Origin: Phapecoctavirus DIJ07P1
DNA: 64,000 nt
Reading direction: 5' to 3' (one strand)
Sequence record: OZ035743.1
Both the position numbers and the translations under genes were made by a program. Position 1 is the first letter of the stretch. Every line of letters starts with the position of its first letter. Positions 3,404 to 56,680 of the stretch are shown here, piece after piece. The notes below the pieces were generated by a model, which saw only the letters and a list, made by a program, of their open reading frames with translations, was not told where the DNA came from and searched no databases.

Positions 3404-3432
3404 TTGACAAAAGTCACTTTAAAGTGTATTAT
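3404..3432 (+). promoter_or_regulatory. sigma70-like promoter TTGACA-N17-TATTAT
   Basis: -35 at 3404-3409, -10 at 3427-3432, upstream of portal gene. Confidence 0.5.
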
Positions 3433-3501
3433 AACTAGATAGGTGAGGTTGTATATAATACAGCCTTGCCTTAACGATTTTATACCTGACTGGAGGAACA
3501 A

Positions 3502-15504: not shown

Positions 15505-15511
15505 TAAAATA

Positions 15512-15536
15512 CCTCGCTTCGGCGGGGTTTTTTCGT
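15512..15536 (+). terminator. intrinsic terminator after tape measure gene
   Basis: CCTCGC-TTCG-GCGGGG stem with UUCG loop followed by TTTTTTCGTTT. Confidence 0.6.
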
Positions 15537-15541
15537 TTCCC

Positions 15542-15571
15542 TTGACACGAAGTTTCTATATGTGTTACAAT
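15542..15571 (+). promoter_or_regulatory. sigma70-like promoter TTGACA-N18-TACAAT
   Basis: -35 at 15542-15547, -10 at 15566-15571; followed by hairpin 15582-15600 plus TTTT. Confidence 0.5.
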
Positions 15572-31800: not shown

Positions 31801-31951
31801 AATAGACATTGCAGATCCAATTGTAACGCCTACGAGTGCTGGAGTTAGAATCAAAACCATACCTAACGATTCTAGTAATGTTTCTGTAGGTAATACTGCG
31901 GTTATTCGCCCAACACCAGTGGTAGATGTGCCAACAACCCAATGGAAATAG
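28889..31951 (+). CDS. tailspike with parallel beta-helix (putative polysaccharide depolymerase)
   Basis: 1020 aa; repeated Asn/Gly-rich coil-like motifs (NCTFKNG, ENIYLSNIDG, KNITIRNV, RNISIENIHG). Confidence 0.5.
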   Translation: MATFPTYPATSLEQGVDLVIFSSNQLHDVINGSATESIETESGLIPTLRKALVDNFFFKSPLDWAQGTNETVFNQLRYFQNGVLSGYYYAPNATLVNPIPMQGTPVGDNNWVLWGLKTEQLATEVTPWVYSGATGYETVISPPYIFDSAIVTINGVIQVLGEAFRIEDSKIILSEPLGHDPATGLPNKLFAYIGKIVASADTDPNLENRLVSLETKTEELTESMDKVPLQTIARKYGLLDDEVAYATAGQSLTGIKALYDPVAQSSYTLPPNITGTLTSLSVSGVMTYSGGSVDLSALAVERGQFVHLPTSFGNNVTLTAKNQTIGRGAGRYRWAGSLPKSILASDTLETSGGLGPNAWVLTNTEGLLTPRGGTYNDLFDVVYLSEFANNTTTYTTPEAAFQAALLAAKASKSKILDAYGCDMTFTTSSFDIQGITLRGGVFRGQRDYRVQNATVEGTTFRNSRVMYWGGAVRMFDCLWDGAPRAGQVGSLVFQGNPISGTFEIDNCTFKNGLYGILQQGTGEPVTRGVFRNLTFMDMQGDAIELNVINKHYDDGCVIENIYLSNIDGTNAPIPLSNWGIGIGVAGKGPYGYGIPDDQYCKNITIRNVFAKRCRQIVHVEVGRNISIENIHGDPDQTVSVGTGLATGAVVMYGSKDFTIDGVYGEPKTDGSTLASNIRMIYLEWGTNAVLDEEGNPVVPAQGRPSNPCFNYSVRNIHTKTGRVFAGVSAGPGYENRVSFENIRCAALQLFGVASWLSMSNITCNIFDCVGQPESGPGTFYDGFFRREKSVLEMVNVNCYPDGKTMVTGRPQWSRCRYSDIHRVNCNVEANMYTNIAGGIGAIVGTTGKVYYLEPNPSRNIDGMHFPTGKEFDKGDMIVKADNTFFLVTTSGAYIPDIPAFGIRATQAGDTFLTQNLTPNGTATNASWLYHYPLSAGTRIRIPGAGVGGADLDTVITRAPYQDNDTWTNPVKIDIADPIVTPTSAGVRIKTIPNDSSNVSVGNTAVIRPTPVVDVPTTQWK

Positions 31952-31977
31952 AGAGGGGGAATCCCCCCTCTTCTTCC
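31952..31977 (+). terminator. GC-rich hairpin after tailspike gene
   Basis: AGAGGGGG-AATC-CCCCCTCT; weak T-tract. Confidence 0.35.
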
Positions 31978-55048: not shown

Positions 55049-55231
55049 ATTTGCTTTCCTCGTTTTGGCTATTAATACATCTGTGTTTGAAATCTCCAGA
55101 GAAGCAATAAAGTTGCTCTCCATCTCGGTATAAACTCACTTTACTGCCGTTGATTACGCTTGTCAATACAAAAATTACAACAAACAACCCTATTGCAAAA
55201 CAAATATTTTCAAACACAACCAACAAGTATT

Positions 55232-55582
55232 TCATTTTAAAAATACCTCATCATCAGTTTCATTATCCCAGAAGAACAAGTCCCAACCATTCGGATCATT
55301 CCATTTAGCTGCTGGAGAAGTCCATATTTGCTCGATATCAATATTCAAAACTTCACCGTTTCGTTTTGAAACAGCTTTAGTTAATTCCCAACGGGATACA
55401 GGCTCCACTTCCCCTGAACCACTCCCACAACAAGCTACCACATTAGGAGGCAAATTAATTGGATCTTTGGTCACGATCATAACGCTTACCCCAGGGTAAA
55501 CTTTTGAAAGATAATCTAAAACGTAATCCACATCACCAGATAAATCCCAAACAAGTTCTTGAATTTCATCAAAATTATTCAT
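55232..55582 (-). CDS. hypothetical protein
   Basis: ORF track, RBS AGGAGAG. Confidence 0.3.
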   Translation of the reverse strand: MNNFDEIQELVWDLSGDVDYVLDYLSKVYPGVSVMIVTKDPINLPPNVVACCGSGSGEVEPVSRWELTKAVSKRNGEVLNIDIEQIWTSPAAKWNDPNGWDLFFWDNETDDEVFLK

Positions 55583-55592
55583 AAGTCTCTCC

Positions 55593-55618
55593 TATAAAAT
55601 AGCCTCCCGAAGGAGGCT
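55593..55618 (-). terminator. intrinsic terminator after terC (minus strand)
   Basis: AGCCTCC-TTCG-GGAGGCT followed by ATTTTAT on minus strand. Confidence 0.6.
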
Positions 55619-55624
55619 CATCTA

Positions 55625-56599
55625 TTAAACAGAAGCTTCTTCTTTTTCAGGGAAGATAAAGCTTGCAATAACACCAAGAGATAATGTGCCTAGAACAATC
55701 ATCAGACTTACGTTAGGGGAAATATCATGCGGGAGGAATGACCACTTGGCATGAAGTGTTTCACCGAACGGGTGATACATAAGTTTAGCACCAACAAACA
55801 CCAGAACCACAGCAACAGCTTTCTCTAAGTGAACCAGATATTTCACAGCTACACTTAACACAAAGAAAAGTGCACGTAAACCAAGAACAGCCATCAGCAT
55901 TGCAGAATAAACTAGCAGAGGTTCTTGTGTCACACCGATCACAGCCGGAACTGAATCAAAAGAGAAGACAATATCTGTAAGCTCAATAACAAACACACAA
56001 AGAAGAGCAGGAGTTGCATATTTAATACCATTCTTAATGGTGATGAACTTTTCACCATCCAGTGCATTGTGCACAGGCAGAACTTTACCTACTAAACGAA
56101 CAGCCCAATGTTTAGAGTAATCAATATCCTCTTCTTCGTCACCACCTTTGATGATAGCCACGGCAGACCAAGCTACAATCAAACCGAACAACACTTGGAC
56201 CGACCAATGAAGGTTAAACAAAGCGGTCCCTGCTGCAACAAAAATACCTCGGAAGACAATGGCTCCTGCAATCCCCCAAAGTAGAATCTTATGTTGGAGA
56301 TGTGTGCTCTTAATTCCAAAGCTTGCAAAAATTGCCATGAACACCATTAGGTTATCTACAGAAAGACTCTTTTCCAACACATAGCCACTTAGGAAAAGCG
56401 CGGCAAACTCTTTACCATGTTCTACCCAAATGAATGCGTAATACCCTAAAGCTAAAGCAATCCAAAAAACAGACCAAAGCAAAGCAGATTTAATTCCAAT
56501 TTCTTTATTCTCTTTATGACCAAAGAAATCGATACCAATAGACAATGCCAAAATACCAACTAAAACAACTACATCAATAATTGGGAAACCGAGTTGCAT
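55625..56599 (-). CDS. terC: TerC-family integral membrane protein
   Basis: multi-pass membrane protein with LSGYVLEKSLSVDNLMVF family signature. Confidence 0.8.
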   Translation of the reverse strand: MQLGFPIIDVVVLVGILALSIGIDFFGHKENKEIGIKSALLWSVFWIALALGYYAFIWVEHGKEFAALFLSGYVLEKSLSVDNLMVFMAIFASFGIKSTHLQHKILLWGIAGAIVFRGIFVAAGTALFNLHWSVQVLFGLIVAWSAVAIIKGGDEEEDIDYSKHWAVRLVGKVLPVHNALDGEKFITIKNGIKYATPALLCVFVIELTDIVFSFDSVPAVIGVTQEPLLVYSAMLMAVLGLRALFFVLSVAVKYLVHLEKAVAVVLVFVGAKLMYHPFGETLHAKWSFLPHDISPNVSLMIVLGTLSLGVIASFIFPEKEEASV

Positions 56600-56649
56600 T
56601 CTTTTCTCCTCTCTCTGCGGGGGAACTATTCCCCCGCTTCATGTGATAT

Positions 56650-56677
56650 ATCTTACTCTTTTTAAGAACTATGTCAA
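56650..56677 (-). promoter_or_regulatory. sigma70-like promoter TTGACA-N16-TAAGAT upstream of terC (minus strand)
   Basis: -35 at 56677-56672, -10 at 56655-56650; GC hairpin 56616-56637 in the leader. Confidence 0.45.
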
Positions 56678-56680
56678 CAC

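Follow-up and report, generated by a model that had tools for sequence, protein, structure and literature searches.

In lambdoid phages, morons are inserted between core genes as units of promoter, gene and terminator, and the leader of T7 gene 10 carries a stabilising stem-loop at the 5′ end of the mRNA. In E. coli, mRNAs can be stabilised by 5′ secondary structures, as both RppH and RNase E require the 5′ end to be single-stranded (review PMC3997798, its refs 92-95). The promoter-early stem-loop (PeSL), described in T4-like phages, begins with an upstream stop codon surrounded by AT-rich DNA, which is followed by a promoter of sigma70 consensus, a stem-loop of the form polyG...polyC, a Shine-Dalgarno sequence and a start codon; in one subclass the stem-loop lies just downstream of the -10, and in a reporter assay one stem-loop of that subclass was as good a terminator as rrnB T1 (PMC2839356). 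Host homologues of the protein considered here are controlled by riboswitches (PMC10197570, PMC12153347), the expression platforms of which start folding only at ~155-175 nt (PMC12153347). In the related phage rV5, sigma70-consensus promoters and rho-independent terminators have been reported genome-wide (PMC3606486).

The DNA analysed here (the window) is a stretch of 64,000 nucleotides from a Phapecoctavirus, a phAPEC8-like phage of E. coli with 99.6% identity to phage ESCO13. It contains a terC gene, the product of which matched Pfam TerC (E = 3e-40) and NCBIfam TIGR03718, the TerC/Alx family (318.6 bits; cutoff 246.4), was 34% identical to E. coli Alx and was assigned to PHROG 7180 in the category 'moron, auxiliary metabolic gene and host takeover'. 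The gene is part of a cassette, made up of a host-type promoter, a leader hairpin, a strong ribosome-binding site and a hairpin after the stop codon, which is real and conserved. Its promoter and terminator are already annotated in relatives: the GenBank record of phAPEC8 has a 'host dependent promoter' at the site of the terC -35, and in phage Schickermooser the 3′ hairpin is annotated as a terminator by ARNold. The features of the cassette are as follows.

56672..56677, minus strand: -35 hexamer TTGACA, with TTGAC invariant in 10 diverged leaders
56650..56655, minus strand: -10 hexamer TAAGAT, with T1, A2 and T6 kept (TA...T invariant across lineages)
56642..56644, minus strand: predicted transcription start, an A, placed 6-8 nt after the -10 by sigma70 geometry
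56617..56637, minus strand: leader hairpin, GCGGGGGAA-TAG-TTCCCCCGC, 21 nt with a perfect 9-bp stem and a 3-nt loop
56606..56611, minus strand: Shine-Dalgarno GAGGAG, 6 nt before the ATG, within a purine-only tract
55625..56599, minus strand: terC/alx-type gene, an ORF of 324 aa with Pfam TerC and TIGR03718 matches
55594..55618, minus strand: 3′ hairpin AGCCTCC-TTCG-GGAGGCT (55618-55601) and the tract ATTTTAT (55600-55594)

The comparison set consisted of 18 full-length related terC loci, with 10 diverged leaders for the alignment of promoter and Shine-Dalgarno, and all of the relatives' loci were retrieved via terC itself. The scans of viral and metagenome contigs yielded few loci, 4-5 viral ones and 10 from metagenomes (7 of the latter usable as terC relatives), so that the covariation sample was 9-10 distinct sequences from ~4-5 lineages. 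A literature search found no published transcript maps of these phages, and the transcription start is therefore only predicted.

The terC leader resembles those of ompA (hp1), papA and T7 gene 10 in having a stable stem-loop at or within a few nucleotides of the 5′ end, as predicted for terC, and a strong ribosome-binding site behind it, and in both cases the sequence of the stem is free provided that it is paired. However, the 5′ end of terC mRNA is a predicted one, and 0-7 nt may be unpaired there, depending on the lineage. The order of elements is the same as in the PeSLs of the T4-like phages RB49 and phi1 (Arbiol et al. 2010; Comeau et al. 2014), and both are set among small accessory genes in a region that is mosaic. 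They differ in that the terC phage lineage belongs to Stephanstirmvirinae, the stem-loop is located after, not before, the predicted start, no sequences homologous to the leader recur in the window, and the recombination breakpoints observed do not fall at the motif. As with lambdoid morons, an accessory gene of host-derived type is bracketed by a promoter and terminator of its own, here predicted ones, whereas the terC phage is virulent, the cassette is not insulated upstream and the downstream genes would depend on read-through; among the loci retrieved via terC, none had an empty site. The yybP-ykoY/alx Mn2+ riboswitch is also a structured leader, the gene behind it encoding a member of the same subfamily (TIGR03718, originally named 'R_switched_Alx'), and GGGGGAAUAG of the terC leader superficially resembles GGGGAGUAG of loop L1 of the riboswitch. 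However, yybP-ykoY/alx leaders have 150-200 nt or more and a 3- or 4-way junction, whereas the terC leader has ~45 nt and one helix, with no multi-helix junction, L3 motif, alternative expression platform or covariance-model match.

A sequence-only reading of this locus had given terC its own consensus-like promoter, TTGACA-N16-TAAGAT at 56677-56650. It is present on the minus strand exactly as described and is a conserved promoter of the sigma70 type, from the sequence of which we infer that it is active. It matches the consensus at 10 of 12 positions, with a perfect -35, a -10 matching at 4 of 6 positions and a suboptimal 16-nt spacer. The -35 is located 3 nt past the TAA stop of an upstream ORF of 73 aa, and the DNA upstream of the -35 is AT-rich. 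The promoter core, the AGGAGA of the Shine-Dalgarno and the ATG were invariant across the related terC loci, and the core was kept where the spacer and the C-terminus of the upstream gene had diverged or been replaced. The spacing of 16 nt was found in all lineages but the alia type, whose spacer could be read as anything from N15 to N18. The region around terC is mosaic, with neighbouring ORFs varying in presence among relatives, and the promoter, structured leader and 3′ hairpin accompany terC in lineages that have other neighbour genes.

The hairpin between promoter and start codon was also confirmed, with a correction to the proposed length of 22 nt (56616-56637): position 56616 is one base too far, leaving 21 nt. 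It folds with an energy of -16.4 kcal/mol (z = -4.25), which none of 200 shuffled sequences equalled. It is followed by AGAGAGAGGAGAAAAGA-ATG, which has no T run. Nine distinct variants of the hairpin were found in the relatives, with 88.9% of cells paired and seven different stem sequences; both sides of the stem had changed in 5 of the 9 pairs, i.e. the changes were compensatory. The covariation score was 0.532 compared to 0.239 for shuffles, none of 500 of which reached the observed score, and the G.U pairs in the stem variants are possible on the sense strand only. In every lineage, both the MFE and the centroid fold contained the hairpin and left the Shine-Dalgarno open, and the U and G of the loop were invariant in 8 aligned variants. 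Across the 18 terC loci, the positions of both hairpins remained constant while the stem sequences changed. Such compensatory changes at a constant position mark the leader hairpin as a selected RNA structure. Pairing of the 5′ flank with codons 7-10, which appeared in two MFE folds, was dropped as it was not conserved in other lineages.

The 3′ end of the leader hairpin is 17 nt before the ATG in the window and 17-19 nt before it across lineages. The stem begins 8-14 nt past the -10, with only 8 nt in Klebsiella-type lineages, which would leave 0-7 unpaired nucleotides at the predicted start; the distance from hairpin to ATG is thus better conserved than that from -10 to hairpin. AGGAGA was invariant in 10 leaders, and the Shine-Dalgarno was unpaired in the centroid folds. 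In FBKp34, the promoter and leader hairpin have been lost together, while the 3′ hairpin is retained. The same design is found a second time in these phages, at the terminase-portal junction, where a conserved second promoter is followed by a 5′ hairpin with stems unrelated to those of the terC leader. The design is therefore not specific to terC.

The 3′ hairpin begins 6 nt past the TAA stop of terC and has 7 bp (5 of them GC), a UUCG loop and a folding energy of -17 kcal/mol. It was found in all 18 full-length related loci, and both sides had changed in 5 of 9 pairs. It is followed by AUUUUAU in the window and by 2-5 U, often interrupted, in relatives. The next ORF starts close behind it.

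55580..55592, minus strand: Shine-Dalgarno GGAG (55592-55589) and ATG (55582-55580) of the next ORF

This GGAG lies 8 nt and the ATG 18 nt past the 3′ hairpin with no promoter between, and no promoter for the next two ORFs (55582-55232 and 55235-54990) was found before 55166. We infer that the 3′ hairpin, if a terminator, must leak, because these downstream ORFs would otherwise be silent. The hairpin proposed after the stop codon is conserved, but its U tract is short and promoterless ORFs follow it, so that its description as a dedicated terminator is not supported as it stands; we take it for an intrinsic terminator of partial effect, a barrier to 3′ decay, or both. On the upstream side, no terminator-like sites were found on this strand from 62082 to terC, and read-through into terC is therefore expected. 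With a promoter that no terminator precedes and downstream ORFs that need read-through past the 3′ hairpin, the description of terC as an autonomous transcription unit was overstated.

We lean, with slightly better than even confidence, towards a combination of three elements: an internal promoter with a booster role, a hairpin that stabilises the 5′ end, and a second hairpin that partly terminates transcription or hinders decay. In this reading, terC is located within a long leftward block of early/auxiliary genes and has an expression cassette of its own, in which a host sigma70-type promoter right after the upstream stop codon would add terC transcripts to those arriving by read-through. 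The start of these transcripts would be a few nucleotides upstream of a highly stable GC hairpin, which could shield the 5′ end of the mRNA from RppH/RNase E 5′-end-dependent decay and could keep the neighbouring strong Shine-Dalgarno (GAGGAG) clear of competing structure. The UUCG-looped 3′ hairpin and its short U tract would end or stabilise most terC transcripts, with enough read-through remaining for the promoterless ORFs downstream. The net effect would be that an Alx-type TerC protein is expressed unconditionally and at a high level. The recurrence of the design before the portal gene argues for such a generic function at mRNA ends, not for sensing specific to terC, and the terC cassette is an ordinary phage expression signal rather than a metal- or pH-sensing leader.

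The geometry of the 5′ end speaks against a stabiliser, as a start 7 nt past the -10 leaves ~4-7 unpaired 5′ nucleotides in the Phapecoctavirus lineages. According to work from the Belasco laboratory, strong 5′ protection is reportedly limited to ~2-4 unpaired nucleotides, so that, from the predicted start, ~4-7 would be at or beyond the limit for strong protection. The better conservation of the distance between hairpin and ATG could instead reflect a role linked to translation.

The value of these results is mostly for annotation and engineering, and they bring no new regulatory principle. They provide covariation evidence that phAPEC8-like and related phages set stable hairpins just past host-type promoters, and these naturally varied, compact modules of promoter, hairpin and ribosome-binding site are candidate expression parts. 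The phage terC appears to be wired for unconditional expression, whereas the host alx is located behind a long Mn2+/pH riboswitch, which sharpens the question of why a lytic phage wants a deregulated TerC/Alx protein.

In an unlikely alternative, which nevertheless has several features of the locus on its side, the leader hairpin would supply the stem-loop of a composite, PeSL-type motif. It would terminate or attenuate transcription from upstream, leaving terC mainly under the control of its own promoter, and the motif could also be a recombination point for gene shuffling. The anatomy of the leader matches the published order of elements, no other terminator is present between the upstream genes and terC, the short distance from -10 to stem in Klebsiella-type lineages is in keeping with it, a true overlap of promoter and stem-loop occurs after terC in two of the loci (L019 and L021), and the region is mosaic. 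However, the stem lacks a U tract in every lineage, being followed by AGAGAGAGG in the window and by AGAGAG, UUCAAAAG, AUUAAAG or AAAGAG across lineages, whereas most of the terminator-like hairpins of this phage carry A/U-tract flanks and tetraloops. The stem would also be transcribed from terC's own promoter, and a strong terminator there would kill terC expression. A terminator function of the leader hairpin was rejected for either strand: the sense strand has no T run after it, and the antisense strand, which has no gene there, no more than a weak one. Membership of a true PeSL repeat family was rejected as well, as no homologous copies of the leader were found elsewhere in the 64-kb window (of a genome of ~150 kb), the best second match being 12 nt. 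Neither do the hairpins mark the recombination breakpoints of the terC allele swap seen in tuntematon, which lie inside the ORF.

It is very unlikely that the promoter match is fortuitous, with terC expressed solely as part of a long early transcript that reads through from upstream. The two hairpins would then be elements for processing or stability between cistrons, marking off a terC segment that stays stable once RNases have cut the transcript. Promoter-like sites are no more frequent in the region than expected by chance (41, compared to 38.5 +/- 6.6 in shuffled sequence), there is no terminator upstream of terC, the terC of FBKp34 is putatively still expressed without a promoter of its own, and an AU-rich stretch just 5′ of the leader hairpin resembles an RNase E target. 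A fortuitous match is, however, difficult to reconcile with TTGAC and TA...T remaining invariant amid diverged or replaced flanks, and with N16 being kept except in the alia type. On the sense strand, 6 of 33 TTGACA sites are intergenic, although intergenic DNA makes up 3.7% of the window (binomial p = 0.001), and the enrichment is confined to this strand, with 0 of 21 on the antisense strand. The hairpin also co-occurs with the promoter.

It had further been suggested that the structured leader could be regulatory, perhaps under Mn, pH or tellurite shifts. This receives little encouragement from a leader of ~45 nt with a single helix, without a match to the Mn riboswitch, the design of which is shared by the portal gene. 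In the Rfam covariance scan with RF00080 (yybP-ykoY), no match was found at E <= 10 in the window or at E <= 1 in 10 phage terC loci. As a control, the model found the E. coli mntP leader (41.6 bits) but missed the E. coli alx leader, so the negative scan is weak on its own, and a Mn2+ riboswitch was rejected mainly on length and architecture (~45 nt from predicted start to ATG, a single 9-bp helix).

That the leader hairpin is a specific cis-regulatory RNA, in the sense of this suggestion, appears quite improbable; it would then bind a protein of the phage or the host, or be a minimal element responsive to a ligand or to pH, and would tune the translation or transcription of terC during infection. 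Such a role would fit with selection on the leader structure, the invariant U and G in the loops of 8 aligned variants, an ATG distance fixed at 17-19 nt and the riboswitch control of the host homologues (TIGR03718; PMC10197570, PMC12153347), and hairpins with GGGGAGU are also found before terC in two unrelated phages. The C/U-rich 3′ arm could in principle pair with the Shine-Dalgarno, but with 5 bp at most this pairing is far outcompeted by the hairpin (-16.4 kcal/mol), and there is therefore no plausible switch. Moreover, a 21-nt hairpin in a ~45-nt leader cannot make a Mn aptamer with a 3- or 4-way junction, RF00080 gave no match even at E <= 10, the stem sequence varies freely and has an equivalent of unrelated sequence before the portal gene, and FBKp34 has lost the hairpin along with the promoter.

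Highly improbable is the further idea that the covarying leader hairpin replaced the host Mn2+/pH riboswitch, as a dedicated binding site for a factor of the phage or host, or as a minimal sensor, and sets the time or the level at which an Alx-type metal exporter is made in the infected cell; if it were true, the invariant loop U and G and the 17-19 nt to the ATG would reflect recognition, and the GGGGAGU-type hairpins before terC in unrelated phages would hint at convergence. These latter hairpins, found in a Vibrio N4-like phage and in Pectobacterium phage Wc4, are most likely generic G-rich/C-rich intercistronic or terminator hairpins.

The 1.8 kb around terC showed 99.6% identity to Escherichia phage ESCO13 and 97-99% identity to approximately 50 further Phapecoctavirus genomes (phAPEC8-like myoviruses, subfamily Stephanstirmvirinae). 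The terC product matched Pfam TerC (3e-40) and scored above the curated cutoff for the TerC/Alx family of NCBIfam, TIGR03718 (318.6 bits; cutoff 246.4), with 34% identity to Alx, the E. coli TerC-family protein. PHROGs places the gene in the category 'moron, auxiliary metabolic gene and host takeover'. It was compared with 18 full-length related terC loci, plus one with the leader and first 48 codons only, taken from GenBank phages, viral contigs and metagenome contigs; TerC protein identity to the window ranged from 99% down to 71%. The gene is mosaic between 56500 and 55660: tuntematon and one metagenome contig matched the window at 96-100% identity on either side of the gene, leader and 3' hairpin included, but at only 52-86% DNA identity (73% protein) within terC, with breakpoints inside the ORF, in the first ~30 and last ~10-25 codons. 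The elements of the locus, with the promoter hexamers and stop codon read from the sequence, are as follows.

56677-56672, minus strand: -35 hexamer TTGACA
56655-56650, minus strand: -10 hexamer TAAGAT, after a 16-nt spacer
56637-56617, minus strand: leader hairpin between promoter and ATG, a 21-nt perfect palindrome, GCGGGGGAA-TAG-TTCCCCCGC
56599-55625, minus strand: terC ORF, 324 aa
55627-55625, minus strand: terC stop codon TAA
55618-55601, minus strand: 3' hairpin AGCCTCC-TTCG-GGAGGCT, followed by ATTTTAT

The sequence-only reading had proposed a TTGACA-N16-TAAGAT promoter at 56677-56650 and a hairpin straight after the terC stop, and both are present. Its 22-nt GC-rich leader hairpin (56616-56637) also lies between promoter and start codon, but is 21 nt long, 56616 being one base off. 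Promoter-like matches in the region were not enriched (41, compared with 38.5 +/- 6.6 in shuffled sequence), therefore the case for the promoter must rest on context and conservation. On an approximate ORF map, 6 of the 33 sense-strand TTGACA sites were intergenic, where intergenic DNA makes up 3.7% of the window (p = 0.001), compared with 0 of 21 antisense sites, and the intergenic sites follow a common pattern, with AT-rich DNA upstream and, 16-18 nt downstream, a TAnnnT hexamer. In the phAPEC8 GenBank record, precisely this site is annotated as a 'putative host dependent promoter determined with MEME', and for the related phage rV5 a genome-wide scatter of sigma70-consensus promoters and rho-independent terminators was reported (PMC3606486). 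When 10 diverged leaders were aligned, no variation was seen in TTGAC, AGGAGA, ATG or the TA...T positions of the -10, while lineages differed in their spacers and in the final part of the upstream gene; the -35/-10 spacing was 16 nt in most. As an alignment pattern, this is the footprint expected of functional signals, and from context and conservation we predict with good confidence that the terC promoter is functional.

The leader hairpin, followed by AGAGA-GAGGAG-AAAAGA-ATG, had a folding energy of -16.4 kcal/mol (z = -4.25; 0/200 shuffles as stable) and was found in every comparison locus possessing the promoter. Seven stem variants were seen in all: GCGGGG(G)AA/UUC(C)CCCGC, GCGGGGAG/UUCCCCGC, GCGGAGGA/UCCUCCGC, AAGAGGGGG/CUCCCUCUU, AAGAGGGAG/CUCCCUCUU, GAGAGGGAG/CUCCCUCUU and AAGGGAGAG/CUCUCCCUU. 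In a loop-centred alignment of 8 distinct variants, 88.9% of cells were paired and 5 of 9 pairs had changed on both sides. The covariation score was 0.532, compared with 0.239 +/- 0.047 for shuffled alignments, none of 500 reaching it, and fell to 0.09-0.18 when the partner was slid by 1-3 columns. The window's stem is longer than that of most relatives by one G and one C, which amounts to the insertion of a compensated pair. The leader hairpin is thus very probably a selected RNA structure, and as its two wobble pairs, G.U when read on the sense strand, would become A.C on the other, the selected structure lies in terC-sense RNA. Phages that are otherwise nearly identical differ in the length of the G and C runs (most have G4/C4, the window G5/C5 and ZCKP1 G6/C5), which could reflect slippage in the homopolymer or errors in sequencing; in the window, the two arms changed in compensation.

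Across lineages, the stem starts 8-14 nt downstream of the -10 and its end lies 17-19 nt upstream of the ATG, so that a transcript starting at the predicted position, ~7 nt after the -10, would have 0-7 unpaired nt before the stem. The hairpin formed in the minimum free energy and centroid folds of all lineages, with the Shine-Dalgarno unpaired in the centroid folds. In FBKp34, promoter and leader hairpin were lost together, terC lying 28 nt after the upstream gene with its 3' hairpin kept. A similar arrangement recurs between the terminase and portal genes.

3404-3471, plus strand: second promoter-hairpin cassette, TTGACA-N17-TATTAT with a 14-bp stem 8 nt later

Its hairpin has a folding energy of -18.2 kcal/mol (z = -5.4). 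PsgM04F and PHB05 also carry a hairpin at this junction, similarly placed (8-11 nt downstream of the -10) but wholly different in stem sequence. Among ten sigma70-like promoters in the window, a hairpin just past the -10 was very stable in 2, moderate in 3 and absent in 5. The joint loss in FBKp34 and the recurrence at terminase-portal point to a generic function linked to the transcript 5' end. RppH and RNase E are well established to require single-stranded 5' ends (PMC3997798, citing Emory et al. 1992; Bouvet and Belasco 1992; Arnold et al. 1998), so that the leader hairpin should prolong mRNA life; we give the role of mRNA stabiliser an even chance.

On balance, we lean towards a booster promoter combined with a 5' stabilising hairpin and a 3' partial terminator or barrier. 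The internal sigma70 promoter would lift terC transcription over read-through, and the transcript would begin just before the stable leader hairpin, which should shield the 5' end, prolonging mRNA life, and leave the strong ribosome site, GAGGAG, accessible. Most terC transcripts would be ended or protected by the 3' hairpin, and an Alx-type protein would thus be expressed unconditionally and at a high level. Public annotation already covers two of the three features, the promoter in the phAPEC8 record and the terminator in the Schickermooser record. The leader hairpin and its covariation appear undescribed in the literature searched; the hairpin itself belongs to well-known classes, namely stem-loops that stabilise mRNA 5' ends and cassettes of the PeSL or moron type.

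PeSLs (promoter-early stem-loops) of the T4-like phages RB49 and phi1 combine a sigma70 promoter with a polyG/polyC stem-loop between the upstream stop codon and the downstream Shine-Dalgarno, sometimes just downstream of the -10 (PMC2839356), and were reported to terminate upstream transcription and mediate gene shuffling (PMC2839356, PMC4122927). The terC cassette has the same anatomy and element order, and could likewise attenuate transcription from upstream genes and assist gene shuffling. However, the stem lies inside terC's own transcript, no U tract follows it in any lineage examined, homologous copies of the leader are absent from the window, and in the only clear case of recombination nearby the breakpoints fall within the ORF; a PeSL-type attenuator is therefore unlikely. 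Most terminator-like hairpins of this phage have A/U-tract flanks and tetraloops, unlike the leader hairpin.

In bacteria, genes for proteins of the TerC/Alx subfamily are typically preceded by the yybP-ykoY Mn2+ riboswitch, which made a test for it worthwhile. Rfam scans at permissive thresholds found no yybP-ykoY match in the window or in 10 other phage terC loci. As a control, the yybP-ykoY model RF00080 found the E. coli mntP leader (41.6 bits) and missed the E. coli alx leader (1290-1580 of its locus) even at E <= 10, which fits the published description of the alx aptamer as a structurally distinct 3-way-junction variant (PMC12153347); the negative scan is therefore weak evidence, unreliable for alx-type leaders. 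Architecture is decisive in rejecting the riboswitch: the phage leader is ~45 nt with a single helix, whereas the host riboswitches are long with a multi-way junction, their expression platforms starting to fold only at about 155-175 nt (PMC12153347). A specific regulatory RNA tuning terC could draw on the invariant loop U/G positions and the fixed hairpin-to-ATG distance; it is nevertheless very unlikely, and the regulatory leader once suggested is not supported, the leader being short and single-helixed, with the same design at terminase-portal and no evident switch, because any pairing that the hairpin's C-rich arm could form with the Shine-Dalgarno instead is far less stable than the hairpin itself. 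GGGGAGU hairpins also occur 16-22 nt before the terC ATG in unrelated phages, the Vibrio N4-like PhiImVa-1 (~1455-1494 of its locus) and Pectobacterium phage Wc4 (~1420-1467), the latter with a T run and terminator-like.

terC had also been described as an autonomous unit, of which its own promoter and 3' hairpin stand. Insulation does not: the stop codon of the 73-aa ORF upstream lies 3 nt short of the -35 and no terminator intervenes. Further upstream on the same strand, a canonical terminator-like site is first reached at 62082-62062, before nrdD, and the one other match is weak (60170-60148, minus strand; 3 GC pairs, interrupted T tail), so read-through into terC is expected. That terC depends on read-through only, with no functional promoter, is highly improbable given its conserved hexamers. 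Downstream, the next ORF has a Shine-Dalgarno and ATG (55582) 18 nt past the 3' hairpin, and since the nearest TTGACA-type promoter is at 55166, ORFs 55582-55232 and 55235-54990 depend on read-through. The 3' hairpin region (-17 kcal/mol), annotated as an ARNold terminator in the Schickermooser record, was 88.9% paired over 10 distinct variants, with double changes in 5 of 9 pairs and a covariation score of 0.385 (0.212 shuffled; 0/500 reach it). It is likely to act as a terminator or barrier, and with promoterless ORFs downstream and a short U tract in all lineages (2-5 U), is best seen as a partial terminator and/or 3'-exonuclease barrier, which would set terC mRNA above the levels of the downstream ORFs.

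Two Klebsiella-phage-type contigs from metagenomes have a TTGACA after the terC stop and ahead of the 3' hairpin, whose loop contains a candidate -10, TTAAAT; this overlap of promoter and stem-loop resembles published PeSL subclasses. The reverse order, a GC hairpin followed by a sigma70-like promoter, was seen in intergenic DNA at 48975-48927 (minus), 42459-42399 (minus) and 15511-15571 (plus), for example GAGGGGGA-gaaa-TCCCCCTC then TTGCAA-N17-TATACT, and AAGGGC-ttcg-GCCCTT then TTGACA-N17-TATACT. A G-run/C-run hairpin, GAGAGGGGG-aatc-CCCCCTCTT (31951-31972, plus), lies right at the stop of a 1020-aa structural ORF, without a clear T tract or a promoter. Two genes upstream of terC, a Macro-domain ORF (57454-56915, minus), labelled 'phosphatase' in the annotation of relatives, has weak similarity to the DarG antitoxin (ADP-ribosyl glycohydrolase); in Schickermooser, a portion of the gene forms a divergent mosaic patch with 56-80% identity.
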